Source: Patescibacteria group bacterium
GTDB lineage: Bacteria; Patescibacteriota; UBA1384; CAJBMM01
Assembly (NCBI GenBank): GCA_041660565.1
Contig: JBAZWC010000001.1
Location: forward strand, 136,197 to 172,480
Direction: 5' to 3'
DNA length: 36,284 nt
Below, in pieces: positions 2,848-36,284 of the stretch. The position numbers and the translations under genes were made by a program. The notes under the pieces are model-generated. The model was not told the origin of the DNA. It made no database searches and was given only the letters and a program-made list of their open reading frames with translations. The number at the start of each line of letters is the position of its first letter. Position 1 is the stretch's first letter.

Positions 2848-3273
2848 ATGGCAAAAAAGATTAAACAACAAATTAAGATCCAGCTTCCGGCTGGTAAAGC
2901 GACTCCAGCCCCACCGGTTGGCCCAGTTTTGGGTGGTACCGGTATTAATATGATGGAATTTTTGACCAAGTTTAACGAACAAACTCGGGAAAAAGGTAAC
3001 GCTGTTATTCCGGTAGAGTTGACTATTTACGAGGATCGGTCATTTTCATTCATCACCAAAGAGCCGCCAGTTGCGTACTTAATCAAACAGGCATTAAAAG
3101 TGGACAAAGGTTCGGCCAGTCAGCGTAAAGAAAAAATTGGCAAACTAACCAAAGATCAAGTTCGTCAAATTGCCGAGCAAAAACTTTCCGATTTATCCGC
3201 AGCCACTGTTGAAGCAGGTATGAACACCGTGGCCGGCACCGCCCGTTCGATGGGTGTTGACGTCGAAAAATAA
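2848..3273 (+). CDS. rplK: 50S ribosomal protein L11
   Basis: 141 aa. [21 protein letters not shown] is the canonical L11 N-terminus. Confidence 0.95.
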
Positions 3274-12415: not shown

Positions 12416-12576
12416 AAATGGTTGTTAATGGTTAATTGTTAAAAGTTGACTGTTATCCAGTACCTTAATTAACTTACTTGGGATTCTGGCAGGAGAATAA
12501 GGCCGCACTTTGTGGTCTTTAATCCTGTCAGAAAAACTCGCCCCAACGCGGGGCAAATACCTTGGAGGATACTTCG

Positions 12577-13671
12577 ATGAAGGGTAAGTGGCTGGTGTTC
12601 GCCGTGGTGGCGTTGTTTGCCACCACTTCGTCGTTCGCTCAACTGTCGGTTGGGGGCGTCATAACCTCCACCGACAAGTCGCACAACATGAGTGTCATGT
12701 CCTCGCTGGTGGTTTCGGCCACCAACCCGGGGACAGATGAGGTGCTTGGGACCGTGAATAACGGTACCCCGATCGCCACGTCTTTCGTCGATTTACGCTT
12801 CACCCTGGTGCTCGACAACGTTGAGCTGCGGGGTAGCGTCGACCAGCTTGTCGACGCGATGATCTTCCCTGACGTGATGTCAAAGGATCACTCGCCGATG
12901 GTCCGGACCACAACCCCGTCGTATTCCCAGTTTCAATGGGAGCGGGACAAGACCCAACCGCGAATCTTCCGGTTGACCGTACCGGCTGGCTCATTGCCAG
13001 ACCGAAACGGCTACACCATGAAGTTCAGGGTGTGGGCGGCACAGTCGTCTGTCACGAAGGCCATGGGCGCACGGCTCTGGGGAAATCGCTCGGGTGAGTT
13101 TCTTGAGGCGTCGTTCCACTTCATGATCAAGCGCACGTGTGCGCCGAAGTCTGAATGGGAGATGGCTACTCAGCTGCAGGGGTTCAACCTGCTAATCGAG
13201 CAGCCGTCAGAGGCTTCGGCACCGGCTCGTGATCGGAAGTACGACGAGAAGCATCAGGAGAGGGCAGACCGATCGGACGTCCGTGAGGATGACCGAGAAG
13301 TCGCGCCGGCTCCGGCGACGAAGCCTGTGGTCAAGCAACAGACGGTTAGGGCGTCGATCAGGGTGGTTGACCCCAAGACTGGACAGACGATCGATTACCG
13401 CGGTCGGTTCGCGGTCACCACGACCAGTATCGAGCCGATCGATTGCAAGGAAGGGCCGGGATTTCAGGTTGACGAGACTGCCCCCAAGGGGGTGTGGACC
13501 GGCCACCTGTCACACGGCGTCGCGACGGCCGAGTTTCCCTCAGACCCAGCCAAGGTATGGTTGGTGGCGTGGGTGGAGTCGGCATCTGGTTGGTCGTTGT
13601 CTCGGGCAATTCGTTTGTCGCCCGAGAATGAGAATCCGGAGCTTCGGTTCCGCCTCGGAGGGTCGAAATGA
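12577..13671 (+). CDS. secreted hypothetical protein (GC-rich cassette 1, gene A)
   Basis: ATG at 12577 with GGAGGA 7 nt upstream; the ORF-track TTG at 12562 is probably an extension. Signal peptide MKGKWLVFAVVALFATTSSFA-Q. G/C-dominated third codon positions. No family recognised. Confidence 0.65.
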   Translation: MKGKWLVFAVVALFATTSSFAQLSVGGVITSTDKSHNMSVMSSLVVSATNPGTDEVLGTVNNGTPIATSFVDLRFTLVLDNVELRGSVDQLVDAMIFPDVMSKDHSPMVRTTTPSYSQFQWERDKTQPRIFRLTVPAGSLPDRNGYTMKFRVWAAQSSVTKAMGARLWGNRSGEFLEASFHFMIKRTCAPKSEWEMATQLQGFNLLIEQPSEASAPARDRKYDEKHQERADRSDVREDDREVAPAPATKPVVKQQTVRASIRVVDPKTGQTIDYRGRFAVTTTSIEPIDCKEGPGFQVDETAPKGVWTGHLSHGVATAEFPSDPAKVWLVAWVESASGWSLSRAIRLSPENENPELRFRLGGSK

Positions 13672-14513
13672 AGTTCCTGTGGATTGCCGCTATCCTGCTC
13701 TGCGCCGACATGGCGACAGCGCAGGCGACGTATGATCGCGGTGTGGTCCGGTCGCACCCGGCCCGATCGGCTGGGCTGTCGCCGGACGGGCAGTCGATGA
13801 CGAATTTCGCCAAGGAAGGCATATTCGGCATCATGCTGCGCGACTTCTTCGGTTTCAATGACAAGGATGTCAGCGAAGCCAAGGTCAAAGCCGCAGCGGG
13901 CAATTTCACGCTGTGGCAGCTAGCTCCTGGTAGTCGGTTCGACGACATGTGTGGGGGAACCCCCATCAAGTCGGTCGGACCGGGACGCACGGCGTTCTGG
14001 TTAGAGTACTATCGTCTCGAGGTTAGTTCGGGCAAGGTTGCCCGATTCGTGACGATCTGCGCTAACGGGATCAAGCTGTCCAAGGAAGGCACTCAGATCA
14101 AGCCGCACGCCGTAGTGGTTACTCGGGACGTCCCGCGCGACGTCATTCGAGACGTTCCCGGTGAGAACGTTTACGTGTTCCAGTACGAGGAACGAGTCGT
14201 CGAGGTGCCCGGCCCAGAACGGGTTGAGTACATCGACAGGCCGATTCTCGTTCCGGTGGCACCTCTGTACGGCGAGGGGCCGCGGACGGTAGGGTCGCAC
14301 GTGGTGCAGACCTATCCCGTGGCGTTTGTCGGCTACACGTTCCGATCATCTGATCGGGCGAAATGCCGGCCACAGCCGAGGCCACGGCCAAGGCCAACCC
14401 CGCCGGGCTGTACGCCCGGAGTAATTCCACCCGGGCCACCAATACGGATTGGCCCACCCAACCCCCAAGACCCGAACCAGGGCTTGGGACCGGCTCCTCC
14501 GATACGGAGGTAG
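13668..14513 (+). CDS. secreted hypothetical protein with Pro-rich C-terminus (GC-rich cassette 1, gene B)
   Basis: The ATGA start/stop overlap with gene A indicates translational coupling. Signal peptide MKFLWIAAILLCADMATAQA. C-terminal RPQPRPRPRPTPPGCTPGVIPPGPPIRIGPPNPQDP. Confidence 0.6.
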   Translation: MKFLWIAAILLCADMATAQATYDRGVVRSHPARSAGLSPDGQSMTNFAKEGIFGIMLRDFFGFNDKDVSEAKVKAAAGNFTLWQLAPGSRFDDMCGGTPIKSVGPGRTAFWLEYYRLEVSSGKVARFVTICANGIKLSKEGTQIKPHAVVVTRDVPRDVIRDVPGENVYVFQYEERVVEVPGPERVEYIDRPILVPVAPLYGEGPRTVGSHVVQTYPVAFVGYTFRSSDRAKCRPQPRPRPRPTPPGCTPGVIPPGPPIRIGPPNPQDPNQGLGPAPPIRR

Positions 14514-14522
14514 CGCACACCT

Positions 14523-14550
14523 GTGGGGCGACGGTTCGCCGCCGCCCCAC
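14523..14550 (+). terminator. GC-rich hairpin directly after cassette 1 (no T-run)
   Basis: gtggggcg..gg-ttcg-cc..cgccccac gives 8+2 bp, 10 nt after the stop. The lack of a U-tract makes intrinsic termination uncertain. Confidence 0.4.
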
Positions 14551-21896: not shown

Positions 21897-22009
21897 GTAG
21901 CCCAGACTTCTTGACCTGCCGTAGCTCGAAGAGCGAAGGAGGTTAGTCTGCTCATTGGTACGCTACCTCCTACGCTAAAGCTTCGGAAGGTCAGGGAAGC
22001 GTGGGCTAC
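21897..22009. repeat. long imperfect hairpin (~45-nt arms)
   Basis: gtagcccagacttcttgacctgccgtagctcgaagagcgaaggaggt is roughly complementary to acctcctacgctaaagcttcggaaggtcagggaagcgtgggctac. Confidence 0.6.
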
Positions 22010-22073
22010 GGACGTTCTTTAATACGAGAATCACAACCGATGTTAGGTGTGTCCACAAAGGAGGGACACAGAA

Positions 22074-22703
22074 ATGGCCTCGCAAACAGCAAGCCCATCA
22101 TGCTACGTGAATCCGCATGAATGGGAAGAGCGCGAAGTGACGGAATGTACCCGCCTATTCAGGTTAACCAACATTCCGGAGTGGGATGGGCTACGAGACC
22201 GCATAAGCAGGTGTCCGGTTTGGGGGACTACTTGCATTGCAGTCCCGCTGTGCATGACACGTCCACAGCTGCTTGAAATGCTGATGATGCTGGGTGTCAA
22301 GATCGCGGGAAATGACCCAGTGGCGGCAGATTGCGAGGGGGAGGATTACCCCCTTCGAGTCGGCACATTCGGGGTCGATCTGCCATGGTTTTTTGCCCGC
22401 CGCGAGTTGGGCGAGCACCCATTTGGTTTTCCACTTGACAGTATGGGTGCCCTTTACCGGTCTATGGGTGCTTACGGTATCGCGCCGGTCGAGTTGGCGC
22501 TCTGGGCAATCGCGCGACACGTCGCTTCTGGCGGTGCATTGCCAACACTACCAACATGGATCGCCGGCCTCAATGTTGTGGGAGGCGGATCGATATTGGC
22601 GCTTGACATGGCCAACGGTCCGTTGAGGATTACCGCCGTTGCACACAACATCCAAGCGTCGAACATTGCCGGCCTGCCATGGTATTTCGCGCCGGCACGG
22701 TGA
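22074..22703 (+). CDS. hypothetical protein, no signal peptide (GC-rich cassette 2)
   Basis: ATG at 22074 with AAGGAGGG at 22058-22065. 209 aa and GC-rich (37/60 G+C hand-counted at 22441-22500). No motif recognised. Several overlapping ORFs in other frames are expected for GC-rich DNA. Confidence 0.55.
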   Translation: MASQTASPSCYVNPHEWEEREVTECTRLFRLTNIPEWDGLRDRISRCPVWGTTCIAVPLCMTRPQLLEMLMMLGVKIAGNDPVAADCEGEDYPLRVGTFGVDLPWFFARRELGEHPFGFPLDSMGALYRSMGAYGIAPVELALWAIARHVASGGALPTLPTWIAGLNVVGGGSILALDMANGPLRITAVAHNIQASNIAGLPWYFAPAR

Positions 22704-22780
22704 GCCAACATCGCGATTCGCACTGGGCGCTTGGGTCAACACGACCCCGGCGCCCGTTTATTTCTCCTCACCTCTCCGAG

Positions 22781-22912
22781 CCGTAGGTCTACGAGCCGGT
22801 GGCCGGCCTACGGCCACCCTCTCCTCTTGGAGGAGAGGGGACAATAGGAATTCCTTCTCCTCTGGAGGAGAAGGTGGAACGCTAAGCGTCCCGTAACCCC
22901 GCTTAGCGGGGT
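22781..22912. repeat. cluster of five short GC-rich palindromic units
   Basis: The units are: ccgtagg...cctacgg (22781-22813); ccctctcctc-ttg-gaggagaggg (22817-22839); ccttctcctc-tg-gaggagaagg (22853-22874); ggaacgctaagcgtccc (22876-22892); ccccgcttagcgggg (22896-22910). The last two are an inverted copy of 1455-1492. Confidence 0.75.
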
Positions 22913-24124: not shown

Positions 24125-25447
24125 ATGAAAAACGGACAATTCAAATTAATCGCCACATCAGGCAAAGCTCGTGCTGGGGAATTGCAGACAGCGCATGGTT
24201 TGGTGCAAACACCGTGCTTTATGCCGGTTGGTACCAAGGCTAGCGTCAAATCGCTTGACCCTACAATTCTTGAACAACTAAACGCTCAAGTAGTTTTGGC
24301 AAACACTTATCACCTGGCAATGTCTCCCGGATCAGCACTAATTTCGAAACAGGGTGGATTGCATAACTTTATGCAATGGAATCACCCAATTTTAACCGAT
24401 TCGGGCGGGTTTCAAGTGTTTTCGCTAGGTAAAGGTAAAAAGAACCGCACCGAAGAATCGCCTGATCAGGTGATTCCCGAAGCGACGATTACTGAGGATG
24501 GGGTTACTTTTAAATCGCATCGCGATGGAAGTGAACATTTATTTACCCCGGAAATTGCGATGAAAATTCAGGCAGAGCTTGGCGCTGATATTATTATGGC
24601 GTTTGATGAATGCCCGCCATATCCATCAACCCGAGCTGAATATCTTGCCGGAATGGAGCGAACCCATCGTTGGCTAACCCGCTGTATCAATGAAAAGAAA
24701 TCGCTAGAATCCTCGTCGTCATTTCGACCAAATCAGAAGACGGAGGACGGAGGACAGAATACGGATAATTTGTCATTTCGACCCGGGGAGCGCGTCAGCG
24801 CGACCGCGTTGGAGAAATCTCAAGAAAAAATCCCCTTCCGCTTTCATCAAAATAGTCCGTCCGATCAATTACTATTTGGCATTGTTCAGGGTGGGGTAGA
24901 CGAAGATCTGCGCAAGACCTCAGCCAAATTTGTGGCATCGCAAAATCTGCCCGGCGTTGCCATTGGGGGAGTGGCTAATGGGGGAGAGAGCCGAGCCGAA
25001 ATGGTGCAGCAAGTGGAATGGGCGCTGGCTGAGCTACCACAGGATAAACCAAGGTATCTAATGGGAATTGGCACGCCGCTAGATTTGCTTGATTTTATAA
25101 CACGGGGGATTGATATGTTTGACTGCGTGTTGCCAACTCGTTTAGGCCGCAATGGCGCATTCTGGATGGTTGAAAATGGCAAGGGAACCAGAGTGCAAAT
25201 TAAAAACTCCAGATTCACTAACGACTCACGCCCGCTAACCGAGGGTTGTAAGTGTGCAACTTGCACCAGATTCAGCCGCGCATACGTTCACCATTTGTTT
25301 GTAGAGAACGAGCCGCTTTCGATGCAATTGTTATCAATTCATAATATATTCATACTTATTGATCTTACGCATCAAATACGCCAAGCAATCATCCAAAACG
25401 AACTCAAAGCATTATCTACCAGTCTGAGGCGAGTCTGGAAAGACTAA
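24125..25447 (+). CDS. tgt: tRNA-guanine (queuine) transglycosylase carrying a ~60-aa in-frame insertion
   Basis: 440 aa. TDSGGFQVFS, LLFGIVQGG, DMFDCVLPTR, and the zinc site CKCATCTRFSRAYVHHL. An extra segment lies between HRWLTRCINEKK and QLLFGIVQGG. Confidence 0.9.
   Translation: MKNGQFKLIATSGKARAGELQTAHGLVQTPCFMPVGTKASVKSLDPTILEQLNAQVVLANTYHLAMSPGSALISKQGGLHNFMQWNHPILTDSGGFQVFSLGKGKKNRTEESPDQVIPEATITEDGVTFKSHRDGSEHLFTPEIAMKIQAELGADIIMAFDECPPYPSTRAEYLAGMERTHRWLTRCINEKKSLESSSSFRPNQKTEDGGQNTDNLSFRPGERVSATALEKSQEKIPFRFHQNSPSDQLLFGIVQGGVDEDLRKTSAKFVASQNLPGVAIGGVANGGESRAEMVQQVEWALAELPQDKPRYLMGIGTPLDLLDFITRGIDMFDCVLPTRLGRNGAFWMVENGKGTRVQIKNSRFTNDSRPLTEGCKCATCTRFSRAYVHHLFVENEPLSMQLLSIHNIFILIDLTHQIRQAIIQNELKALSTSLRRVWKD
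24715..24845 (+). repeat. composite TGTCAT-family repeat inserted in frame within tgt
   Basis: Two left-end copies: cgtcatttcgacc at 24717 and tgtcatttcgaccc at 24771. Then ttggagaaatct (24809-24820) and ccccttcc (24832-24839), in the same order and spacing as in the intergenic element at 1366-1436. Confidence 0.7.
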
Positions 25448-25543: not shown

Positions 25544-25572
25544 TTGACAAAACGTCTCAGGTATGCTATTAT
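25544..25572 (+). promoter_or_regulatory. sigma-70-like promoter candidate for GC-rich cassette 3
   Basis: TTGACA (25544-25549), 17-nt spacer, TATTAT (25567-25572). Confidence 0.5.
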
Positions 25573-25719: not shown

Positions 25720-26298
25720 ATGAAGTGGCTCACAATGTTGTTCGTCATGGCGGCCGTTGTAATGGCCGCAACAATTCCTGCGTTCGCGCAGGATGATGAT
25801 CGGATCGACGGGCAGCCAAAGGCAGATCAGGTGGGGCAGACGTCCCAGCTGGTCGCGCCACCGGACCAGTCCACCCAGTCGACCGAAACCCTGAAAGGGG
25901 ACAAGGGCGACACCGGCGAGAAGGGCGATCCTGGCGCAACCGGCCCGGCCGGTCAGCCAGGTCATGAGGGCAAGATGGGACCAGCTGGTCCCACTGGTCA
26001 CCCTGGACGTCAGGGTCGTACCGGCCCTCGTGGTCGTGATGGTAAGAACGGCCACGACGGTCGCAATGGCCGGGATGCGGTCGTCAACTACGACGCAATC
26101 GTGGGTCATGTGATGGAGCTTTTGGAGAAGAAGTGGGAAAATCCCAACAACCTCCCCAAGCCGTTGAAGGATGACCACACACTGCTCCAAGTCGTCGGCA
26201 CCACCGCGATTGCGGCCCTGTACTGGAACTGGATCATCGGGATCGCGATGATCATATTCGTTGTAGTCTTTGTTGTTCATATTAAGCGCGGCTGGTAG
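25720..26298 (+). CDS. collagen-like triple-helix-repeat protein with signal peptide and C-terminal TM anchor (GC-rich cassette 3)
   Basis: GGGAGGAG Shine-Dalgarno. Signal peptide MKWLTMLFVMAAVVMAATIPAFA-Q. 20 uninterrupted G-X-Y triplets. C-terminal hydrophobic WNWIIGIAMIIFVVVFVV followed by HIKRGW. Confidence 0.75.
   Translation: MKWLTMLFVMAAVVMAATIPAFAQDDDRIDGQPKADQVGQTSQLVAPPDQSTQSTETLKGDKGDTGEKGDPGATGPAGQPGHEGKMGPAGPTGHPGRQGRTGPRGRDGKNGHDGRNGRDAVVNYDAIVGHVMELLEKKWENPNNLPKPLKDDHTLLQVVGTTAIAALYWNWIIGIAMIIFVVVFVVHIKRGW
25897..26076 (+). repeat. (G-X-Y)20 collagen-like coding repeat
   Basis: GDK GDT GEK GDP GAT GPA GQP GHE GKM GPA GPT GHP GRQ GRT GPR GRD GKN GHD GRN GRD, aa 60-119. Confidence 0.9.
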
Positions 26299-26408: not shown

Positions 26409-26735
26409 ATGGCCAATGTCCAAGATCTAATGGAAAAAGATATCTTTGAACTATTACATATTCCAGATTTGCCGGATGATAAAAAAACTGAAATGCTAAA
26501 CATTATTAACGAAACTATTCAAGCCAGAGTAGTTGCGCGGATTGCTGAAGCAGTATCGGAAGAAGAAGCACAACAATTTTCTGCACTCGCCGAAAAAGAT
26601 GACCAAGAAGCGATGAAAAAATTCTTAACCGATCGTCAAATCAGCTTAGAGCAACTTGCACTAGAAGAAGCGTTAAATTATCGTATTGAATTAGTCGAGA
26701 CATTAGATTTAGCTACAAATTCTAAGGAAAGTTAG
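26409..26735 (+). CDS. small helical acidic hypothetical protein
   Basis: ATG at 26409 with AAAGGAG upstream. The ORF-track start at 26298 would run through the preceding terminator. 108 aa, and the stop lies 1 nt before the ATG of the giant gene. Confidence 0.6.
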   Translation: MANVQDLMEKDIFELLHIPDLPDDKKTEMLNIINETIQARVVARIAEAVSEEEAQQFSALAEKDDQEAMKKFLTDRQISLEQLALEEALNYRIELVETLDLATNSKES

Positions 26736-26736
26736 A

Positions 26737-29700
26737 ATGCCCGAAGGTTTATCTGCCGGAGAACCGGAACCACAGCCAAAAGTTGGCTTTAGAGAAAGAC
26801 TAAAGCAGAGATTTGGCCGTACAGAATCTGTAGACAAGAATTTGTCTGTAGAAGAAATACGAGAACAGCTAAACGCTCTACGCTCAGATGTAATGATATT
26901 TGATGATGACGGCAATGAAATTACTCAAGAGCATAATCCAGCCAAAGAAGCGGAACTCAAACAAGCTTTGATTCAAGCGATACTCAAAAAGTCAAAGGAA
27001 GGCGAACTTTCACCGGAAGATAATGATGATTTGGTTAAAGACCTAGTTGAAAATGGACATCAATCTGCGATGGCCGATATTAGTGTATCCACTCATGGAT
27101 TCAGAAATTTTCAAAAAATGTTAGACGTTACCGGTCAAAAATCGATTGAAGTTGATGGTGAAGAAGTAAATCGAGAAACAAAATCGTTTATATTAAGCAA
27201 GATTGATAAATTGCCAGAATATTGGCGCCGCCAGGTTAAAAATGGAATTGTTGCTGGCACAATTTCGGCGGCAGTTATTGGATTGCTCGCGGTAACTGTT
27301 GGTGCACCTGTAGGGATAGCAGCCATATCTTTTGGTGGCGCTACACTGGCCAAGGGGGCAGCAGACAAACTATTTCGTGATCGGCTAATTCATAAAGACA
27401 AAGATGGCGATGGTAGTTTGGCGTATAAAATCGCTCAAGATCGAGCAGGCAACATCACCGAAATGATGGAGCTGGGCAAAAATTATCAAGCCGAGCTAGA
27501 CCCAAATCGCAAAGCACAGATTTTACAAGAAATTCTTGAGCGGACCAAGAAGCGTGAGAGTGAAAATCTGAAACAGTACGAATCACTTTCAAGAAAGGCG
27601 GCATGGATTGAAGGTATTTCCGGAGCCGCCGGGGCAATGGTGACTGGCGCCTTAACTCATTCGATTGTAATGGGACAAGAGGTAAAGCAGCAAATTGCGC
27701 ATTGGGCTAAAGATGGAGTGCAGATTCACGATAACCAGTTGGTAACAGATCCAAATGTTGGTCACAACGTTAAAGAAACAGCAGATGGCACGTGGCGGTT
27801 TATTCTTAAGCAAGCGGATATTGATAAAGCCAAACATTTGTTTGGGGCTCACTGGCAGCAATATCTACACGGTGCAGGACAAAACGGACCTTTTGGACAG
27901 GGAATGTCTCCGGTTGCACCGTCACATTTATTGCCCGGCCAAGAAATCTTTCATAATTCAAAATTTGCTGAAGTTGTAATTAATAGGTTAGCGGCGCACG
28001 AAGTAGTTAGCCATATTTCGACTCTTGGAACAGTCGGTGCAATCGCGGTACCAGGAGCAGCCTCTGGATTGGCTAGCGAAATGTATAATAACCCAACATC
28101 ACAAAAATCACCTCTTTCGTCACAGCATGCAGAAGCATCTTCAGATACGCCAACCGAAACAGATTCTGATATCACAGAAGATATCCCTATTGACACAGAT
28201 ACTGATGGAACTTCCGGAACCGAGCCGGTTGATACTGAACCGGAGCCTGATAAAGCCGAGCTAGATCAATCGGGGCGTAAGAATGATACAATCAAAGATT
28301 CTTTAGACCCGTCAGAGACAATAGAAGATAAAAAGGTGGATCGCTCTGACCGTCAGCAGCGCATCTCCGATAAGGCTGAAAAGATATCGCGCATTTCTAT
28401 ATCAGAAGCTGGGAGTTACTGTCAAACGGTTTATCGAGAAGCATATAAATTTGCCCGGGAGTTACAAAGGGGTGAGGGTGTTTACGACGCAGATGCACTC
28501 ACCGCTATTGGTGTAATAATGGATTTGGTTAAAAATGGCGAATCGTCAACAAAAAATAGTTTTAGATTCGCTGAAAAAGTTTTTTCTCAAAATGATGATG
28601 AGTTACGTGCTATCGCGAGTCGAATTAACGACCCGACATTATCGAATGAGAGTAGACGCAATTCTTTAAGTGATTTGGTTGAACATATCATACCTCTCAT
28701 TCAAATTTCAGATAATCAGGCAGATAGTGGCACTGTTGAAGAAAAAGAATCTATTCTTAAAGAAATTAAGAATGGTAACGAAATTGAATTGCCGGTTAAG
28801 GATAAAGATGGAAAGAACCTAATACTAAATGAACAAATTGTCGATGGGCTAAAATTTAAATTATATAATCCAAGTGCAACTCTTCTAGAAAAAACAAAAG
28901 TGATTTGGGAAAAATACAAAGATAAAGACAGAGCCAAGGTCAAAATTCATTCCAGCGTACCAAGAGAAAAGGTTTATTATTATGAACTAGTAGATCCGGA
29001 CGCGGAGCCGGCGACTGTTTCATCAGAACCTGTTGGTGGGGCGGAAAAGACTGAAAAGTCGGCTGAACCAACTAAATTGCCGGAATTTAAAATTGAAAAT
29101 CTGGAAGCTTTACACGTCAATCAAGAAATTCCGTTGACCGACACCGAGCGCCTATTTATTGAAAAAGATCCAGTAGGGAATTTTATCGTTCCTGAAATTA
29201 TGATTAATGGTAGTAGGATTGCGCTAGATGATCGCAGAAAAAACCATGTTCATCACGATAATAAAATTGTTGTAATCACAAAAATACCGGGTACAAGTGC
29301 TGGTGATTTACTTTACCACGGAGAATTAGCAGATGCTCCTCAAAAAACTTCTGAACCAATCTTATCATCTAAAGGCGAACCCGTCGTTGAGCCGGAAGAA
29401 ACGCCAAAACCAGTAGAACCAACTGAACTGCCAAAATTTGAGGCAGACAAATTTGAAGGATTGCATGTTGGTCAGCAAATTACTCTTCGTGGGAAAACTG
29501 AAAATCTGGTTGCTAAAGGCGGAGAACCGCCACTTGTGCAAGTTAATGGAACTAATATCAAAATTGACAATCCGGATAAAGTGGCAGTGCAACACGGTCA
29601 TCAGATTGTGGAAGTTACCACGGTACCCGGCAACAGTCCCGAGGATATGTATTTTCACGCCAAATTAGTTGACACGCCAAGCGTTTTATCAAAACTAGAA

Positions 29701-31491
29701 CAATCTACACCTCAGCCAGAAGTTGAACGTAAAAGAATGGAAATACATCTAAGTTTGCCAGACGTGGGTGAGATTAAAAAAGGTGATGAACTTACGATAG
29801 ACAATCCAGTTGTTAGCGATAGTTTTATTCATAATGTATTGGCGCTGCCAACTCTAGTAATCAATGGCAAGAATTGTATTTTATACGATCCTAAACACCC
29901 AGAGGACATTAAACTCGCGAGAGAATATCTGGGGAAGGAAAAAATTAAGATCAAGCTTATATCACAGGATGAAAGAACGGGTACGTTCAAATATATTTTT
30001 CTTGAGCCCGATTCGTCAACTAAAGAAAAAGTAGCGAAAAATGTCGATGATACAGCCGGAACAAACCCTGCTAATGCTGTAGAGGCGCCAGCTGGACAAA
30101 ATTTAACTCGTCATGCAGAAGGTCCAATAAAAATCGAAAGAGAGTCCAACTATACCGGACGGCAAAAAGTGGCGTTTGATCGGGTTATGGCGGTCGAAAA
30201 TATGAGCCCAGAACAAGCCAAGGATTATTATCTTAAAGTGTATCGTCAGGCGGTTAATTTTGAATCCAGTTCAGGAGTCTCAATTCCGAACGAGGATTTG
30301 TTTGCCTTCGGATTAATTTCAGACTTGATTCGTAGCACAGATGAGCCAACCACCGTAGATTTCAATGACGCGATATCTATTCGCGAAAAAGATGCGGCCA
30401 CTATCACGGATATGTCAAAGGAGATTTTAGCCACTAATGATGATCATTACCGACAAATTGGATTGTCTGAACTTGGTCGTCACATTGTCACGTTGATTCC
30501 CAATAACGAAGAACCCCCAGCCGTACCCACGCCAGCTACAGAATCAATTACCACACCAACAGAGCCTGAAGTGGGGGCGCAAGCAGCCGCACCAATTAGC
30601 TCGGCGGCAAAAAAGAGCGCAGAATCTGCCACAGTTGAATCCGAAAGCCAGCGGCTGGAAAATGAAATTGCCAAATTACCTGATGAATTTAAGAGATTTA
30701 TCGAAGGTTTACAAAGTGTTGAGGAACATATTTATAGCAAGGACACAGAATGGCTATGTTCTTCCGATGGCCTAGCACATTTAGACAGATTTGTGTACGC
30801 GCCAGCTCCGTCGCTTGGTAGAGCTATTGGTCATGATGCGTCGGAAATATCACGCTATCTAAGTGGTATTGTACAGTCTCAAGCAGAATTACATAATCAG
30901 TTAGATGCTATCGGGATGCACCCGTTTGATGCTAAGGTGGGTGATGCGTTTAATTCAGACAATTACGATTCACCAGACGAGGAATTTGTATGGATAAGTG
31001 ATGGTCAAGAACGCCATAATCACATTGCTGGCGTATCTAGAATCGGTTACAAGCTAGGTGACAAAGTTGTACGCAAGGCAAGAGTGAAACGATGGATGTA
31101 TCATGAGCCTTCACCAGGTCAATCAGCCGAGCCAACATCTACTGCCACCGAGATTACGGCAGCAAAGACTCCTGGTAGACCAGAGGATGATATAATAATT
31201 GAAGATATTGGTGATGTGACTGAGCGCTTGCAACAATATGATGCGCGTCTAAATCAAGACGATCGATATCAAAGAATGACTGAACCAGAAAAATTGTTTT
31301 GCCGAATCTATCTTGATGCTCGCGGTTTCACCGACGACAATGTGCAATACTCTCTAGACTTAAGAAATACAGACGCAGAATCATTCGATATCGCATTAGA
31401 ATATACGACTAGTATTCTTAATCGAGAGTTTAGCGACAACTTGCGTTATGAATATTATGTAACATTACGCAATTGGCTCACTAAATTATAA
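26737..31491 (+). CDS. giant (1584 aa) membrane-anchored multi-repeat hypothetical protein
   Basis: Uninterrupted ORF with AAGGAAAG upstream. Two adjacent hydrophobic helices (27243-27350). An acidic T/D/E linker, four tandem ~80-92-aa modules, three copies of a ~100-aa helical module and a GrpE-like segment. Confidence 0.85.
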   Translation: MPEGLSAGEPEPQPKVGFRERLKQRFGRTESVDKNLSVEEIREQLNALRSDVMIFDDDGNEITQEHNPAKEAELKQALIQAILKKSKEGELSPEDNDDLVKDLVENGHQSAMADISVSTHGFRNFQKMLDVTGQKSIEVDGEEVNRETKSFILSKIDKLPEYWRRQVKNGIVAGTISAAVIGLLAVTVGAPVGIAAISFGGATLAKGAADKLFRDRLIHKDKDGDGSLAYKIAQDRAGNITEMMELGKNYQAELDPNRKAQILQEILERTKKRESENLKQYESLSRKAAWIEGISGAAGAMVTGALTHSIVMGQEVKQQIAHWAKDGVQIHDNQLVTDPNVGHNVKETADGTWRFILKQADIDKAKHLFGAHWQQYLHGAGQNGPFGQGMSPVAPSHLLPGQEIFHNSKFAEVVINRLAAHEVVSHISTLGTVGAIAVPGAASGLASEMYNNPTSQKSPLSSQHAEASSDTPTETDSDITEDIPIDTDTDGTSGTEPVDTEPEPDKAELDQSGRKNDTIKDSLDPSETIEDKKVDRSDRQQRISDKAEKISRISISEAGSYCQTVYREAYKFARELQRGEGVYDADALTAIGVIMDLVKNGESSTKNSFRFAEKVFSQNDDELRAIASRINDPTLSNESRRNSLSDLVEHIIPLIQISDNQADSGTVEEKESILKEIKNGNEIELPVKDKDGKNLILNEQIVDGLKFKLYNPSATLLEKTKVIWEKYKDKDRAKVKIHSSVPREKVYYYELVDPDAEPATVSSEPVGGAEKTEKSAEPTKLPEFKIENLEALHVNQEIPLTDTERLFIEKDPVGNFIVPEIMINGSRIALDDRRKNHVHHDNKIVVITKIPGTSAGDLLYHGELADAPQKTSEPILSSKGEPVVEPEETPKPVEPTELPKFEADKFEGLHVGQQITLRGKTENLVAKGGEPPLVQVNGTNIKIDNPDKVAVQHGHQIVEVTTVPGNSPEDMYFHAKLVDTPSVLSKLEQSTPQPEVERKRMEIHLSLPDVGEIKKGDELTIDNPVVSDSFIHNVLALPTLVINGKNCILYDPKHPEDIKLAREYLGKEKIKIKLISQDERTGTFKYIFLEPDSSTKEKVAKNVDDTAGTNPANAVEAPAGQNLTRHAEGPIKIERESNYTGRQKVAFDRVMAVENMSPEQAKDYYLKVYRQAVNFESSSGVSIPNEDLFAFGLISDLIRSTDEPTTVDFNDAISIREKDAATITDMSKEILATNDDHYRQIGLSELGRHIVTLIPNNEEPPAVPTPATESITTPTEPEVGAQAAAPISSAAKKSAESATVESESQRLENEIAKLPDEFKRFIEGLQSVEEHIYSKDTEWLCSSDGLAHLDRFVYAPAPSLGRAIGHDASEISRYLSGIVQSQAELHNQLDAIGMHPFDAKVGDAFNSDNYDSPDEEFVWISDGQERHNHIAGVSRIGYKLGDKVVRKARVKRWMYHEPSPGQSAEPTSTATEITAAKTPGRPEDDIIIEDIGDVTERLQQYDARLNQDDRYQRMTEPEKLFCRIYLDARGFTDDNVQYSLDLRNTDAESFDIALEYTTSILNREFSDNLRYEYYVTLRNWLTKL
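28762..30012 (+). repeat. four tandem protein-level repeat modules inside the giant ORF
   Basis: R1 28762-29001, R2 29065-29340, R3 29416-29679, R4 29737-30012. R2 and R3 align clearly: EPTKLPEFKIENLEALHVNQEIPL versus EPTELPKFEADKFEGLHVGQQITL, and INGSRIALDD versus VNGTNIKIDN. All end in an aromatic-rich strand plus (L/E)(V/A/P)D.P or LEPD. Confidence 0.7.
30772..31095 (+). other. GrpE-like segment within the giant ORF
   Basis: LAHLDRFVYAP...LHNQLDAIGMHPFDAKVGDAFNSDNYDS...IAGVSRIGYKLGDKVVRKARVKRW resembles the GrpE C-terminal pattern (G(V/M)..I...G..F(D/N)P..H.A...........(V/I).....GY.L.(D/G)(R/K)V(L/I/V)R.A.V.V). Eye-level similarity only. Confidence 0.4.
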
Positions 31492-31535
31492 GTAATTTAT
31501 TCAGTTTATTCTGTCCAATTTAATTGCACATAATG

Positions 31536-31673
31536 TGAATCCGGAAATTATTTTCCCTGTCATCCTGAACTTGATTCAGGATCTACATAATAAGAACCAA
31601 GGACTGGATTCTTAGATCTTGTCCGGAATGACACAACCCTGAGTAAATCATCAAACTGGAATTTCCGGATTCA
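31536..31673. repeat. nested palindromic element: 14-nt perfect inverted repeat enclosing two TGTCAT-family units
   Basis: tgaatccggaaatt (31536-31549) / aatttccggattca (31660-31673). Inside are ctgtcatcctgaacttgattcaggatc (plus orientation) and gatcttgtccggaatgacaca (minus orientation). Confidence 0.75.
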
Positions 31674-31736
31674 TAGTACATATTTTTGCATTAGCCAGAT
31701 AATCTGGTTATCATTATAAGTGTATATCTATTATAT

Positions 31737-31767
31737 GGATTCCGGGTCGAGCCCGGAATGACAGGGG
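31737..31767 (-). repeat. TGTCAT-headed palindromic unit (reverse orientation)
   Basis: ggattccgggtcgagcccggaatgacagggg, with stem ttccggg / cccggaa, ending 5 nt before the ATG at 31772. Confidence 0.7.
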
Positions 31768-31771
31768 AATT

Positions 31772-31948
31772 ATGGAAATTGCTCAATTGCGCCAAGGTTT
31801 TGAAAAGGTCAATGCCCGAATTGATCGCTTACAGAAAATGTACAGTGAAGATATAAATGTAACGCTTGAGGATGTAAATAAAGTCCGCCGGTATGCCGAA
31901 AAATTAGAGAAACGGTTGGCAAAACTGGAGCTAATGCAAAATGGATAA
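31772..31948 (+). CDS. small coiled-coil hypothetical protein (58 aa, below ORF-track cutoff)
   Basis: ATG 31772 to TAA 31946-31948: MEIAQLRQGFEKVNARIDRLQKMYSEDINVTLEDVNKVRRYAEKLEKRLAKLELMQNG. It overlaps the next ATG (31941) by 8 nt. Confidence 0.45.
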   Translation: MEIAQLRQGFEKVNARIDRLQKMYSEDINVTLEDVNKVRRYAEKLEKRLAKLELMQNG

Positions 31949-32342
31949 GCCAAGAACTCTAGAAGAACCGTCACAGCCGGATGAAATAGTATCATCCGAA
32001 GTGGTTAGTAATCACGTTGCCGAAAAACCGGCTGTCGAGAAAATTACTGACGGTATTTTAGCCGAACCCGGGCAAAAACCGCCAAAAGATGAAATGGCAT
32101 CAGACGGTCCTTCTGAAATTGTGTCTGCAGAAGTGCAACCACCAACACCCAAGGCCCCCCTCGAGACTGTAACTCCCAATACATCCAATCTTCCCAATGA
32201 CCCCTATATGCTAGCAGAAGAAAAAGCAGTTCAACATGAAACATTTAAGCAAATGGAGCACGCTATTCGGGATCGTAAGACCGGGGAAGCATACGAGCTT
32301 GACCAAGCAGTAATCGCAATGCGTCAAGAAGCGGAAAAATAA
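31941..32342 (+). CDS. Pro/Glu-rich, probably disordered hypothetical protein
   Basis: 133 aa. The stop overlaps the ATG of the ATPase gene (TAATG). Confidence 0.5.
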   Translation: MDKPRTLEEPSQPDEIVSSEVVSNHVAEKPAVEKITDGILAEPGQKPPKDEMASDGPSEIVSAEVQPPTPKAPLETVTPNTSNLPNDPYMLAEEKAVQHETFKQMEHAIRDRKTGEAYELDQAVIAMRQEAEK

Positions 32343-34855
32343 TGGACACACGCTATTTTCCAAACGAACCTGTAACAACAACTCAAAGCGCGTGGCCGCT
32401 ATTTTTAGGGTTGTTGCTGCTTGCTTTGGTAATTGCACTGGTCACAATATTGGTGTGGTGGCTAAAACATAAATCAGAGCAGTCTCGTCTGAAACGATCG
32501 CTTGAACTAACGATGTTGCAGGTCAGTTTACCTAGAGACACTAATCCATCCGAAGAAGATGTGCGTCAAGATTTTCGCGAGCTAATTGCTATTGGTGAGC
32601 CGTTGATCGCCAGCTTTCAACACTTATATGATCATTCTCGCAAGTTTGGTAGCGTGCCCCAAGAGCACATTACCTTTGAAATTGCCGCCCACGATCGCGA
32701 AATATTCTTTTATGTTGGCGTTTCTAAACATCTGGTTAGCTTGATTGAAAAACAAATTCACGCTCAATATCCGGATGCGATGATAGAAGAAATTCAAGAT
32801 TACACCATTTTACGCGATAAAAACGCCAAAATTGCCGCCGATCAGCTAAAATTGGCAAAAAGCTTTATCTTGCCCATTCGCACCTATCGAGACCTCGAAT
32901 CCAGCTCACTTAACGTCATCACCAATACCTTGTCAAAACTGGGTGATGATTCCACAGCGGCAATTCAATTTTTAATTCGCCCGAATGATGGCTATTGGCG
33001 CACGCAGGTGATGTTTTGGGCCAAGCAGCTGCAACTTGGTAAAGGATTTAACCCGTATGCCGATACATCGATGCGCCAGTTTTGGAATATTCTAAGCCCG
33101 AATTTGAAAAAATCGGTTATGACCGAAGACGCCAAAGCAGAAGCGGAGCGCCGTCAGTTAACTCCAATGCAAGAAGAGCAACTGAAATTACTAAACAATA
33201 AATCCGGTAAGGTGGGATTTGACGTTCAAATTCGAATTATTGCTACCGCGCCAACTGCACCGGAAGCCAAAACGGTGCTTGAAAACATCTCTTCGTCATT
33301 TGCCCAGTTTACCGATCCTACCGGTAACTCAATTCAGCCAGCGCATTATCCTAATGTAGCTCGGTTGGTGTTGGATTATATTTTGCGCACCTTTACGCCG
33401 GGACGAGTGATGATTTTGAACACCGAAGAAATTACCTCGTTGTTTCATTTTCCAAATCGTCATATTGAAACTCCAAACATCCGCTGGCTTAAAGCCAAAA
33501 AAACCACCCCGCCGCCAAACCTTCCAACCTCGGGTAGGTTGCTGGGCGTATCGCATTTTCGCGGTGAAGATAAACAAGTGTTCATTAAACCAGCGGACCG
33601 CATGCGCCATTTGTACGCGGTGGGTAAGACTGGTGTGGGAAAATCAACCTTGCTGCAAAATATGATTGTAGATGATATCAAAGAAGGTTTGGGAGTGGCG
33701 TATTTGGATCCGCATGGTGACTCAATCGAATACATTATGCGACACATTCCCGAGAATCGAATTAAAGATGTGATTATCTTTGATCCATCCGACACTGCCC
33801 GTCCACTCGGATTAAACTTGTTAGAGTGGAGTACTCCGCAGCAACGAGATTTTTTGGTCCAAGAAGCGGTGCAGATATTTTATAAATTATTTGATCCAAA
33901 CCAAACCGGTATTGTGGGGCCGCAGTTTGAGCATTGGTTGCGTAATGCGGCGTTAACGTTGATGTCCGACCCGAATGGGGGAACGCTGATCGAAATTCCA
34001 CGTTTGTTTGTGGACAAACAGTTTGAAACCCAAGCGTTGCAACACGTTACCGACCCGGTGGTACGCGCGTTTTGGGAACAGCAGATGTCCAAAACCTCCG
34101 ATTTTCATAAATCCGAAATGCTTAACTACTTTACCTCTAAATTTGGTCGTTTTATGACCAACACCATGATTCGCAACATCATCGGTCAGCCCAAAAGCGC
34201 GTTTGATTTTAGGAAGGTGATGGATGAAGGCAAAATTTTGCTGGTTAATTTGTCTAAAGGTAAAGTGGGCGAGGTTAACAGTAATTTGCTCGGTATGATC
34301 TTAGTGTCTAAATTGCAGGTAGCGGCGATGAGTCGGGCTGACGTACCGGAAGATCAGCGCCCGCCGTTTTATCTTTATGTTGATGAATTTCAAAACTTTA
34401 CTACCGACGCCTTTGCGTCCATATTATCCGAGGCACGCAAGTACGGCTTGGCTCTAAGTTTGGCCAACCAATACATCGAGCAGCTAACCGAGCAAATTCG
34501 CAATGCGGTAGTGGGCAATGCCGGTACAATTGTGGCGTTTCGAGTGGGTGCCGCTGATGCCGAGTTTCTGGTCCACGAGTTTCAGCCGCTGGTTGAGGAC
34601 GATCTAATCAATATCGACAAATATAACTTTTACTTAAAACTGTTAATTGATAATCGCGCCGAGCGACCGTTTAATTGCGAAGTTTTGCCACCAGATACCA
34701 CCGGCACGGCTGCGATGGCAGATGCGGTTCGCCACGCATCACGCACCACTTACGGTCAAGACGAAAAAGTAGTTGAAGCTCAAATAATTGAACGATCTAA
34801 AGTAGATCAGATCTCACTAGGTGGCATGGAACAGCCGGTTCCATCTGCCAGGTAA
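32342..34855 (+). CDS. membrane-anchored VirD4/TraD-like (type IV coupling protein-like) P-loop ATPase
   Basis: 837 aa. N-terminal TM helix (WPLFLGLLLLALVIALVTILVWWL), a ~380-aa unknown domain, Walker A GKTGVGKST followed by AYLDPHGD, and Walker B FYLYVDEFQNF. SEARKYGLALSLANQY...GNAGTIVAFRVG is typical of TraD/TraG C-terminal modules. Confidence 0.8.
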   Translation: MDTRYFPNEPVTTTQSAWPLFLGLLLLALVIALVTILVWWLKHKSEQSRLKRSLELTMLQVSLPRDTNPSEEDVRQDFRELIAIGEPLIASFQHLYDHSRKFGSVPQEHITFEIAAHDREIFFYVGVSKHLVSLIEKQIHAQYPDAMIEEIQDYTILRDKNAKIAADQLKLAKSFILPIRTYRDLESSSLNVITNTLSKLGDDSTAAIQFLIRPNDGYWRTQVMFWAKQLQLGKGFNPYADTSMRQFWNILSPNLKKSVMTEDAKAEAERRQLTPMQEEQLKLLNNKSGKVGFDVQIRIIATAPTAPEAKTVLENISSSFAQFTDPTGNSIQPAHYPNVARLVLDYILRTFTPGRVMILNTEEITSLFHFPNRHIETPNIRWLKAKKTTPPPNLPTSGRLLGVSHFRGEDKQVFIKPADRMRHLYAVGKTGVGKSTLLQNMIVDDIKEGLGVAYLDPHGDSIEYIMRHIPENRIKDVIIFDPSDTARPLGLNLLEWSTPQQRDFLVQEAVQIFYKLFDPNQTGIVGPQFEHWLRNAALTLMSDPNGGTLIEIPRLFVDKQFETQALQHVTDPVVRAFWEQQMSKTSDFHKSEMLNYFTSKFGRFMTNTMIRNIIGQPKSAFDFRKVMDEGKILLVNLSKGKVGEVNSNLLGMILVSKLQVAAMSRADVPEDQRPPFYLYVDEFQNFTTDAFASILSEARKYGLALSLANQYIEQLTEQIRNAVVGNAGTIVAFRVGAADAEFLVHEFQPLVEDDLINIDKYNFYLKLLIDNRAERPFNCEVLPPDTTGTAAMADAVRHASRTTYGQDEKVVEAQIIERSKVDQISLGGMEQPVPSAR

Positions 34856-35530: not shown

Positions 35531-36284
35531 ATGTCGAATTCACTACTACAAAGTGTAGTTGCAGATAAGGCAGTCGAGTTCAAACAAAATTTTAACCCGC
35601 AGGCAATCATTGCCGGGTTAGTTTCTGGTCTAGAAGAAAAGGCGCGAAACGTCATTTCCTCGCGTACCGGTCTGTCTGGTGATAAAAAGGTAACTTTATC
35701 GTACATTGGTGATCATTACCACCTTTCTCGTGAGCGTATTCGCCAAATTGAGCGTGATGTAATGGCCAAATTAAGCGATAAATTACATGAAAAACACTAT
35801 CACGAAATACAATTTGTAGTGGCAACTATCGACCGCGAAGGCGGAGTAGTTAACGAAGAGACATTGGTCAAATTGCTGCTAATCGACTCTCGCCGTACTA
35901 GCGCAGACATTAATTCATTAAGACTATTTTTACGTTTAACCAAAGACGTGGTAGAAGTTAAAGATTCTAAAACAATGCGTCCGGGTTGGGTGTTGCGTAT
36001 GGTAACAGTGGCTAAAATTGATTCTATCGTTCAAGACCTAATCTTGCTAATTCAGCAATCCGGTTCGGTGATGACTTTTGAAAGCGTTTGGGAGCAAATG
36101 CCAGCATTACACGACCGCCCACAATCATTTCTTAAACAGATTATTTCGTTGTCACGCGATATCGTTAAAACCACCGAAGGCACTTTTGGTTTGTCTAGTT
36201 GGCCAACCGTTAACCCAAGAAACGTCCGTGATAAAATTTACTTCGTACTTAATCAATCCGGTACACCGCTGCACTTTACCGAAA
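35531..36284 (+). CDS. 5'-partial view of a DNA-binding protein: sigma-70 region-4-like HTH followed by a HARE-HTH-like domain (continues beyond window)
   Basis: ATG at 35531 with AGGAGA upstream, open to the window end, so absent from the ORF track. LSYIGDHYHLSRERIRQIERDVMAKL resembles sigma-70 region 4.2. GTFGLSSWP resembles the HARE-HTH signature. Confidence 0.55.
   Translation, partial: MSNSLLQSVVADKAVEFKQNFNPQAIIAGLVSGLEEKARNVISSRTGLSGDKKVTLSYIGDHYHLSRERIRQIERDVMAKLSDKLHEKHYHEIQFVVATIDREGGVVNEETLVKLLLIDSRRTSADINSLRLFLRLTKDVVEVKDSKTMRPGWVLRMVTVAKIDSIVQDLILLIQQSGSVMTFESVWEQMPALHDRPQSFLKQIISLSRDIVKTTEGTFGLSSWPTVNPRNVRDKIYFVLNQSGTPLHFTE

Follow-up and report, generated by a model that had tools for sequence, protein, structure and literature searches.

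A large part of bacterial diversity belongs to the Patescibacteria, which live on other microbes and encode, besides a type IV secretion system (T4SS) in most of them, approximately two unlinked coupling-type ATPases per genome. A locus of this kind lies in a 36,284-nt stretch of DNA from a Patescibacteria group bacterium (contig JBAZWC010000001.1, positions 136,197 to 172,480), which was analyzed at its full length and is referred to here as the window. At window positions 26409 to 34855, five same-strand genes encode a small acidic protein of the DUF5663 family, a giant modular protein, two further small proteins and a P-loop ATPase related to T4SS coupling ATPases (hereafter ATPase1). A preliminary description of the region, made from the sequence alone, had read the five genes as a candidate envelope module in which an orphan ATPase is paired with the giant protein. 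The key question is whether these genes form one machine. Our analysis suggests that they probably do not, and that two independent units, a DUF5663-giant cassette and an ATPase locus, stand side by side by clade-specific inherited synteny rather than as one new envelope machine.

Two Probably Independent Units Placed Side by Side

Comparison of 19 related loci (given L numbers below) showed that ATPase1 is followed by a small gene, a gene for a helix-turn-helix (HTH) protein with Sigma70_r4 and HARE-HTH domains and a gene for a second, paralogous ATPase (ATPase2), an HTH-spaced order found in L002-L011 and L018. Elsewhere (L012, L013, L016, L027), the genes for queuine tRNA-ribosyltransferase (TGT), ATPase1 and ATPase2 follow each other with overlapping junctions and no HTH gene between them. 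ATPase2 of the relatives is ~1000-1190 aa long, has the same domains as ATPase1 and is followed by SecDF on the opposite strand. The window ATPase is 70-76% identical to the ATPase1 orthologs, as against 32-39% to ATPase2, and ATPase1 and ATPase2 form reciprocal clades in a neighbor-joining (NJ) tree. ATPase2 was seen in every relative of the window's clade with enough sequence. Because the window stops within the Sigma70_r4 gene, the predecessor of ATPase2 in relatives, an ATPase2 gene is expected in the source genome ~0.5 kb past the window end, and the orphan state ascribed to ATPase1 is an edge effect of the window. Distant ATPase homologs (P0112, P0118) stand alone in other contexts.

A small acidic Pro/Glu-rich ORF (open reading frame) lies directly 5' of ATPase1 in nearly all relatives, giant-free loci included, and is usually start-coupled to it. 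Since such equivalents precede ATPase1 even where there is no giant, the 133-aa gene of the window belongs, as judged by gene order, with ATPase1.

The cassette is distributed differently. It lies between TGT and ATPase1 in the window and in L003, L005, L006/L024, L008-L011 and L018, which are all the loci of this clade with enough upstream sequence, and giant-family or other giant proteins are also encoded 5' of ATPase1 in L002 and L001/L019. All cassette-adjacent loci fall into one ATPase1 clade of the NJ tree. The cassette is absent from the sister clades (L012, L013, L016, L026, L027, L028), and cassettes with no DUF8128 ATPase (the ATPase1 family, see below) within 10 kb occur in L020-L023 and L029. 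These ATPase-free sites differ from each other: two cassettes stand in tandem in L020/L021, one lies beside rpsB-tsf in L022/L023, and one follows dnaG-rpoD in L029, where the giant is a direct homolog of the window giant N-domain (E=5e-23). The order of ATPase and giant genes is thus kept throughout one clade, but the sister clades are giant-free and cassettes occur elsewhere without the ATPase. The proposed pairing of the ATPase with the giant does not survive this comparison, as the partners that accompany ATPase1 broadly are the Pro/Glu-rich protein, the HTH protein and ATPase2, and both units occur apart.

Within the window, the five ORFs were recovered with the lengths, coordinates and orientation first reported (Table 1), and so were the three junctions: 1 nt separates the genes at 26735/26737, 31941-31948 is shared by two genes over 8 nt, and TAATG stands at 32342. 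The view that these junctions couple all five genes into one string needs correction, however, because a spacer of 280 nt lies between the giant gene and the three genes that follow it. The spacer contains inverted repeats at 31549-31592/31729-31772 and 31510-31549/31660-31699, and the sequence CCGGAATGACA is present in it twice, with near-copies at 3003 and 21844. It had no Rfam match, and it could be an element of the miniature inverted-repeat transposable element (MITE) or repetitive extragenic palindromic (REP) type or a structured leader. A promoter and terminator scan gave signals no better than those of shuffled sequences and no strong promoter or terminator among the genes of the region. 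The composition of the 58-aa protein agrees with the coiled coil suggested before, and no convincing homolog of it was found in the related loci. The 133-aa protein is Pro/Glu-rich as reported (14% Glu, 11% Pro, pI 4.57).

Table 1. Features of the five-gene region and its flanks (window coordinates).
Feature	Coordinates	Strand	Remarks
Collagen-like surface protein	25720..26298	+	Signal peptide, GXY repeats, C-terminal transmembrane segment; Pfam Collagen E=1e-9; NCBIfam collagen-like adhesins
DUF5663 protein, 108 aa	26409..26735	+	Stop 1 nt 5' of giant start codon
Giant modular protein, 1584 aa	26737..31491	+	No signal peptide; conserved N-terminal domain, unique C-terminal 1100 aa
Giant, conserved N-terminal domain, aa ~40-450	26854..28086	+	Only part with homologs
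Giant, Gly/Ala-rich hairpin, aa 169-207	27241..27357	+	Kyte-Doolittle peak 2.28; predicted membrane anchor, both ends cytoplasmic
Giant, duplication B1/B2, aa 775-872 and 893-985	29059..29691	+	Beta-rich; local alignment versus shuffles z=26
Giant, GrpE-like domain, aa 1290-1451	30604..31089	+	41.9-45.4 bits with Pfam GrpE (cut-off 25.8), matched at model positions 6-162 of 165
Spacer, 280 nt	31492..31771		Nested inverted repeats; RNA fold z=-3.7
Basic coiled-coil-like protein, 58 aa	31772..31948	+	Charged residues and Leu abundant
Acidic Pro/Glu-rich protein, 133 aa	31941..32342	+	Probably disordered; start-coupled to ATPase1
ATPase1, 837 aa	32342..34855	+	Transmembrane helix, DUF8128, TrwB/VirD4-like P-loop domain
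ATPase1, Walker A GKTGVGKS, aa 428-435	33623..33646	+	G428, G431, G433 and K434 invariant, 40 homologs
ATPase1, Walker B region YLYVDEFQNF, aa 677-686	34370..34399	+	D681, E682, F683, Q684 and N685 invariant, 40 homologs
Hydrophobic ORF, 134 aa	34944..35348	+	No family match; 23S_rRNA_IVP-type or other small gene in this slot in relatives
Sigma70_r4 HTH protein	35531..36283	+	Truncated by window end; Sigma70_r4 E=8e-10

ATPase1 Is Related to Gram-Positive Coupling ATPases

The identification of a membrane-anchored VirD4/TraD-like ATPase was borne out. ATPase1 consists of a hydrophobic transmembrane (TM) helix (aa 20-40), behind which the sequence is rich in K/R, a DUF8128 domain at aa ~55-400 and a TrwB/VirD4-like P-loop domain at aa ~400-800, and three Pfam families score above their cut-offs (TrwB_AAD_bind 27.2 versus 20.5 bits, TraG-D_C 25.9 versus 22 and T4SS-DNA_transf 22.9 versus 20.1). 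Because the NCBIfam TraD equivalog and subfamily models stay far below their cut-offs (47.6 versus 366), membership of ATPase1 among the type IV coupling proteins (T4CPs) is to be taken at the domain or superfamily level only. No AAA_10 or CagE_TrbE_VirB Pfam match was found in ATPase1, whereas a true plasmid VirB4 scores AAA_10 with E=3e-116; by sequence, the C-domain is VirD4/TraD-like and not VirB4-like.

The AlphaFold2 (AF2) model of ATPase1 (mean predicted local distance difference test score, pLDDT, 84.5) has a long N-terminal helix (aa 18-54), an N-domain of alpha/beta type and a RecA-like domain into which helices are inserted; this helical block, at aa ~499-628 within the nucleotide-binding domain (NBD), is a candidate counterpart of the all-alpha domain of TrwB. 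When the whole model was compared with the PDB by Foldseek, full-length TrwK/VirB4 ranked first (E=1e-17, with a TM-score that is low owing to domain orientation), followed by TrwB (E=7e-13, TM-score 0.61-0.66, C-terminal half) and then by HerA, Cag-beta and DotL. The DUF8128 domain modeled alone (pLDDT 87.9) matched only the N-terminal domain of VirB4/TrwK (E=1e-7 to 2e-5, TMq 0.40-0.45), all other matches having E>1e-3. DUF8128 is therefore predicted, with moderate strength, to have a VirB4-N-terminal-domain-like fold, the resemblance being one at the level of the fold. Matches of ATPase1 to defense components (PADLOC mad8, HerA) were set aside, as they reflect P-loop-level similarity and no other genes of such systems are present.

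The family is large. Database searches gave 3,732 matches to ATPase1, with labels that include Berkelbacteria, Parcubacteria, Kerfeldbacteria and Saccharibacteria metagenome-assembled genomes (MAGs), and the best 120 are 45-76% identical, nearly all ~800-850 aa long, and have DUF8128 (PF26449) together with TrwB/T4SS-DNA_transf/TraG-D_C. Full-length homologs also occur on hundreds of plasmids of Bacillus, Streptomyces, Staphylococcus and archaea. One from a B. subtilis plasmid (E=1e-45, 23% identity, aa 98-816) heads a Tcp/pLS20-like operon in which a Replic_Relax relaxase, TcpC, TcpE and an AAA_10 VirB4 follow. Phages encode homologs as well, including gp156 of phage G (E=5e-50, aa 111-771), phrog_5156 (E=6e-93), the SPO1 group and orf201 of 0305phi8-36, and the phage homologs have been proposed to be part of a dispensable "DNA translocation operon" beside a nickase, with no complete T4SS (PMC3357382). 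Given these full-length plasmid and phage homologs, ATPase1 is, on sequence grounds, a chromosomal homolog of the Gram-positive conjugative coupling ATPase of the Tcp/pLS20-like type, whose mating-pair formation (MPF) class is MPF-FATA. ATPase1 is hence not lineage-specific, a possibility raised before for the apparatus, as its family is widespread in Patescibacteria and has full-length homologs on Bacillus plasmids and in Bacillus phages.

Several side observations concern this family. Before gp156, phage G (L031, 85012-99072) encodes gp155, a second TraG/AAA_10-type P-loop protein, and its Replic_Relax nickase gp146 lies ~5 kb upstream of gp156; the tandem ATPases are reminiscent of the double-ATPase locus in the Candidate Phyla Radiation (CPR). 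Phage SP8 (L030) also encodes a full-length ATPase1 homolog. A Planctomycetaceae MAG contig (L017, 9935-11535), which is a non-CPR genome, has an ATPase C-domain homolog spread over four short ORFs (32-40% identity), which has the look of a pseudogene or of an error in the assembly. L026 encodes, near its distant homolog, a DnaB helicase that contains an intein and has a LAGLIDADG insertion (1-2663); it is unrelated to the locus studied here.

The preliminary description was also right that the window has no T4SS channel, relaxase or pilin: Pfam scans of the ORFs in all 36 kb found no VirB4, VirB6, relaxase or pilin family. Likewise, the Pfam annotation of five related neighborhoods (±10 kb; L018, L019, L024/L025, L026 and L027) lists no T4SS channel, relaxase or pilin, and no VirB3-, VirB6- or VirB8-like gene stands beside ATPase1 in the window or the annotated related neighborhoods. 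Such separation is the rule for coupling-protein genes in Patescibacteria. A survey of 2,918 Patescibacteria genomes found 5,713 VirD4-type T4CP homologs, ~2 per genome, only 148 of them near virB4, and VirB4 itself was found in 2,417 of 3,035 genomes (PMC12102498). Since most of these genomes carry VirB4 and coupling genes are rarely near it, a T4SS is likely to be encoded elsewhere in the source genome. The T4SS cluster of S. epibionticum (Se) has no recognizable coupling and relaxase proteins (PMC10633639; for a further source on Patescibacteria T4SS and coupling proteins, see PMC12857230), and in this species a T4CP homolog is non-essential and the T4SS essential, exaptation being kept possible by the authors (PMC12102498).

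The DUF5663-Giant Cassette

The first gene of the region encodes a 108-aa protein that is helical and acidic as described (pI 4.28). It belongs to DUF5663 (PF18908): PF18908.7 is annotated on P0125, a protein with the same 108-aa sequence, and PF18908 proteins are retrieved by a profile made from the relatives, the local Pfam score of the window protein being 19.6 bits, below the cut-off of 23.7. DUF5663 homologs were compared in eight related loci; each of them is acidic (pI 4.3-4.8), and in all eight a large ORF of 596-2043 aa lies directly 3' of the DUF5663 gene, at 0-10 nt or with an overlap.

The two-helix membrane hairpin that had been placed near aa 170-205 of the giant corresponds to its strongest hydrophobic segment, aa 169-207, which has K/R on both flanks; of the 12 partner proteins scored, 11 have a segment equivalent to it, with none above the threshold in L010. 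The term "repeat protein", however, overstates what is present, namely a few internal duplications: B1/B2 (Table 1), A1/A2 (aa 550-665 and 1148-1260, z=11) and B0/B3 (z=7.9). Pfam scans of nine overlapping giant segments (E<=1) found GrpE only, and no adhesin, Ig, DUF11 or cell-wall-anchor domain.

Homologs of the giant are confined to its N-terminal part. An exhaustive HMMER search with aa 1-1200 against 1.84 billion proteins gave 40 representative clusters, with proteins of 292-2469 aa, and all 39 non-self matches lie within aa ~34-551, mostly ~40-450, with almost nothing beyond ~450. A word-indexed search with the entire giant retrieved nothing but the query, phmmer against the PDB found nothing significant, and a metagenome scan with the N-domain profile found a single locus. 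Iteration ties the large proteins of L002, L003, L006, L011 and L018 to the giant N-domain; a profile from the window and L003 alone reached other partners only after representative sequences had been added, and even then it made no connection to the partners in L005, L008, L009, L010, L020 and L022. The two partner sub-families, compared by hhalign, did not match each other either. Between the window and L003, identity falls from 76% for the ATPase to 58% for DUF5663 and ~40% for the giant N-domain, and is undetectable for the rest of the giant. Domains found in the variable parts include the GrpE-like domain of the window and Metallophos in the giants of L002 and L011, together with FAD_oxidored in L019 and a GrpE that L002 has in another protein, of 774 aa; in other relatives no known domain was recognized. 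A conserved N-terminal region followed by a variable C-terminal region is the layout of polymorphic effector and toxin proteins, and the family scans recognized no toxin, immunity or defense family.

The simplest prediction for the giant is an in-in hairpin topology with the bulk of the protein facing the cytoplasm, because there is no signal peptide and K/R flank the hairpin on both sides. A cytoplasmic bulk would suit a GrpE-type domain but would not suit an adhesin outside the cell. The envelope or host-contact role proposed for the giant is doubtful for the same reasons, its only recognized domain resembling a cytoplasmic co-chaperone.

Tandem cassettes were observed in L020/L021 (10001-16659), where genes for 121 aa and 701 aa are followed by genes for 107 aa and 1232 aa, and the large proteins of both are paralogs of each other (E~1e-16 to 1e-19). 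This arrangement shows that cassette duplication takes place as a unit.

Proposed Model

Based on these results, we propose that unit 1 (26409-31491) is a self-contained two-gene cassette in which the DUF5663 protein is translationally coupled to the large modular protein. The N-domain of the giant (~400 aa) would insert its hairpin into the cytoplasmic membrane, and the remainder would be a fast-evolving, domain-shuffling part that contains the GrpE-like domain. DUF5663 may bind or escort the conserved N-domain, the giant may act as a hairpin-anchored, cytoplasm-facing scaffold or as a secreted effector, and its GrpE-like domain may engage Hsp70. Unit 2, which begins at 31772 or 31941 and runs past the window end, would be the first half of a locus for the Pro/Glu-rich protein, ATPase1, a small gene, the HTH protein and ATPase2. 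By homology with TrwB/VirD4, ATPase1, possibly mixed with ATPase2, would form a membrane-anchored ring that uses ATP to deliver a DNA or protein substrate to a channel. The most likely channel would be the relaxase-less, chromosomal MPF-FATA-type T4SS encoded elsewhere in most Patescibacteria; less likely, the ATPase would act alone. The acidic disordered protein and the HTH protein may be accessory or regulatory.

Alternative Readings of the Locus

The alternative that fares best, although we consider it unlikely, is an integrated secretion module, a sharpened version of the preliminary reading, in which the giants would be cargo or effectors, DUF5663 their chaperone or adaptor, and ATPase1 and ATPase2 would energize export to a host via the T4SS or another route, so that the variable domains would hit host targets and the hairpin would enter the host membrane. 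Co-linearity in the whole clade speaks for it, and so do the co-directional genes with no strong promoter or terminator between them and the lack of a Sec signal in the giant, which would make a dedicated export route necessary. By analogy, a small acidic helical gene start-coupled 5' of each large protein resembles secretion chaperones and Lap/LXG pairs, and a conserved N-terminus with a hypervariable, domain-shuffling C-terminus is the typical layout of effectors and polymorphic toxins. On the other hand, the two units occur apart in the loci named above, the repeat-filled spacer interrupts the coupling, and no toxin/immunity pair or secretion signal was recognized. Adjacency, moreover, is weak evidence: because the whole region, from the release factor, L1, L10 and L7/L12 through TGT to SecDF, is syntenic in these genomes, it can be inherited without function. 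A functional link with the giants as cargo and DUF5663 as their escort is plausible by analogy, if of low probability. A fuller version appears quite improbable to us: DUF5663 would be the chaperone or adaptor for giants that the Patescibacteria-specific pair of pLS20-type ATPases exports via the relaxase-less T4SS to the inside or the surface of the host, where the GrpE-like domain would act on host DnaK and the metallophosphatase on host nucleotides.

It also seems distinctly unlikely that ATPase1, ATPase2 and the Sigma70_r4/HARE-HTH protein constitute an autonomous, T4SS-independent membrane DNA translocase for export, uptake or segregation, to which the cassette would be an unrelated neighbor. 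A gene of DNA-binding HTH type always lies between or beside the ATPase paralogs, plasmid and phage homologs stand beside Replic_Relax nickases, with the phage operon proposed to work without a complete T4SS (PMC3357382), and the coupling-protein homolog of S. epibionticum is dispensable where its T4SS is essential (PMC12102498). However, neither the window nor the related loci that were checked showed a relaxase or nickase, no channel component was found, and the reading is purely inferential. The HTH protein shows no similarity to Replic_Relax; a degenerate relaxase was considered for this gene and dropped for now, as it does not resemble the Replic_Relax nickase of phage G.

That the giant is an extracellular adhesin or host-contact fiber, anchored by its hairpin and assembled with the adjoining collagen-like surface protein, is very improbable, since its large size, modularity, fast evolution and beta-rich repeats are set against the lack of a signal peptide, the positive charge on both hairpin flanks that predicts an in-in topology, a GrpE co-chaperone fold as the sole recognized domain, and no adhesin, Ig, DUF11 or cell-wall-anchor domain by Pfam.

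Two independent neighbors thus remain the probable explanation, and several points weigh against it. The two units have stayed adjacent throughout a deep clade, in which ATPase identity drops to ~51% and the giants are no longer recognizably similar, and this persistence could reflect selection for linkage rather than inertia. ATPase2 and the T4SS of the source organism are ones we infer from relatives and the literature, and a T4CP homolog that is non-essential where the T4SS is essential argues against an obligatory partnership of the two (PMC12102498). The topology of the giant and the ring formation of the ATPase are predictions only.

Genomic Setting of the Region

Pfam scans of all major ORFs showed that the window genes are a same-strand housekeeping series: ftsW, nusG, rplK, an mfd-like helicase gene, dprA, topA, recR, an aquaporin gene, dus and two genes for DUF11 surface proteins, then a release factor gene, ybaB, pth, rplA, rplJ, rplL and tgt, and finally the five-gene region. 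The nearest relatives of the proteins of that region come from MAGs labeled Saccharibacteria, Berkelbacteria or "Patescibacteria group". Because of this series and these relatives, the window is, as far as its gene content tells, core chromosome of a CPR/Patescibacteria bacterium and not a mobile element. Rfam and tRNA scans found no tRNA gene or Rfam family in it.

Between tgt and the cassette lies the gene for the collagen-like surface protein (Table 1); a collagen-type gene is also found 5' of the cassette in L018 and, weakly, in L011. PHROG matches that would make this protein a tail fiber were dismissed, since they are explained by GXY low complexity. The best promoter-like site of the region (25544-25572; 11/12 matches plus TG) is located 5' of this gene.

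Other features of the window stand apart from the two units. A GC-rich island at 12560-14550 (~56-66% GC versus ~43% for the window) has a compositionally foreign look. The neighboring ORFs 12562-13671 and 13668-14513 lie in it; the N-termini of both resemble signal peptides, and neither ORF matches a Pfam or NCBIfam family. A second GC-rich patch (21900-22900, mostly ~54-62% GC) between rplA and rplJ contains an orphan 218-aa ORF (22047-22703) without a family match, and relatives hold a different gene of ~170-210 aa there. Ribosomal protein L1 (20900-21838, 312 aa) has an acidic N-terminal extension of ~100 aa, and its Pfam L1 match covers the C-terminal part only, in two stretches. The family match of TGT (24125-25447, 440 aa) is also in two stretches, which suggests an insertion relative to the model.

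Implications

Published work already covers the class of ATPase1 and the separation of this class from virB4, and it largely accounts for what was claimed as an orphan ATPase paired with a giant. What is new is the anatomy of the tandem-paralog locus, with its HTH gene and coupled acidic disordered protein, the VirB4-like fold predicted for DUF8128, the ancestry that the ATPase shares with coupling ATPases of Bacillus plasmids and phages, and the cassette of DUF5663 and a giant, polymorphic and, by prediction, hairpin-anchored protein, which is separate and previously undescribed; no mention of DUF8128 or DUF5663 was found in the literature searched. The present value lies mainly in improved annotation. 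The Patescibacteria T4SS is essential in the sole genetically tractable species (PMC12102498). If the cassette proteins were cargo, the question of T4SS substrates would become testable at this locus, and if the export reading were true, they would be the first candidate substrates and recognition factors of this essential system.

Comparison with Known Systems

The small acidic helical proteins whose genes lie upstream of large polymorphic substrates, such as secretion chaperones and the Lap partners of LXG proteins, are, by analogy, a parallel to the cassette. Like the chaperone-effector pairs of type III, IV and VII secretion systems and the Lap-LXG pairs, it combines a small acidic helical gene, start-coupled, with a large protein of conserved N-terminus and variable C-terminus, but it has no toxin or immunity genes and is often not beside a secretion ATPase. 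The GrpE-like domain of the giant matches Pfam GrpE over nearly the whole model, whereas it lies close to the C-terminal end within a 1584-aa protein with a predicted membrane anchor, instead of standing alone in ~200 aa like the GrpE exchange factor; its NCBIfam equivalog score is 16.5 versus 194 bits, and phmmer finds no PDB GrpE.

ATPase1 shares with TrwB (R388), VirD4, DotL and Cag-beta the N-terminal membrane anchor and the RecA-like NBD, into which a helical block is inserted in the model of ATPase1 that may correspond to theirs. It differs from TrwB/VirD4 in the extra ~350-aa DUF8128 domain between TM segment and NBD and in having one TM segment, not two, and sequence similarity to them is marginal (phmmer E~1e-3, profile E~1e-5). 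With VirB4/TrwK, its top whole-chain Foldseek match, it shares the layout of an N-domain and a P-loop C-domain, but its sequence families are of TraD/VirD4 type and it has no VirB3, VirB6 or VirB8 neighbors; Patescibacteria possess a separate bona fide VirB4 (PMC12102498). The phage ATPases (0305phi8-36 orf201, SPO1 gp27.4 and phage G gp156) are full-length kin of ATPase1 with no complete T4SS nearby, are reported to be without a TM segment and to stand beside a MobC/Replic_Relax-type nickase, in both of which ATPase1 differs, and the 0305phi8-36 operon is dispensable in the laboratory (PMC3357382). The Bacillus Tcp/pLS20-like coupling ATPase, annotated as "DUF87 domain-containing protein", is similar over its full length, N-domain and two-domain layout included, and its gene precedes those for relaxase, TcpC, TcpE and VirB4, whereas ATPase1 is encoded between TGT and an HTH gene in the core chromosome.

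The T4CP homologs surveyed in Patescibacteria (Quinonero-Coronel et al., 2025; PMC12102498) are of the same family, chromosomal and without virB4 or relaxase genes nearby, and their ~2 copies per genome agree with the pair of ATPase1 and ATPase2. The tandem-paralog locus, its HTH gene, the coupled Pro/Glu-rich protein, the VirB4-N-terminal-domain-like fold predicted for DUF8128 and the DUF5663-giant cassette lie beyond that survey and are what the present locus adds to it.

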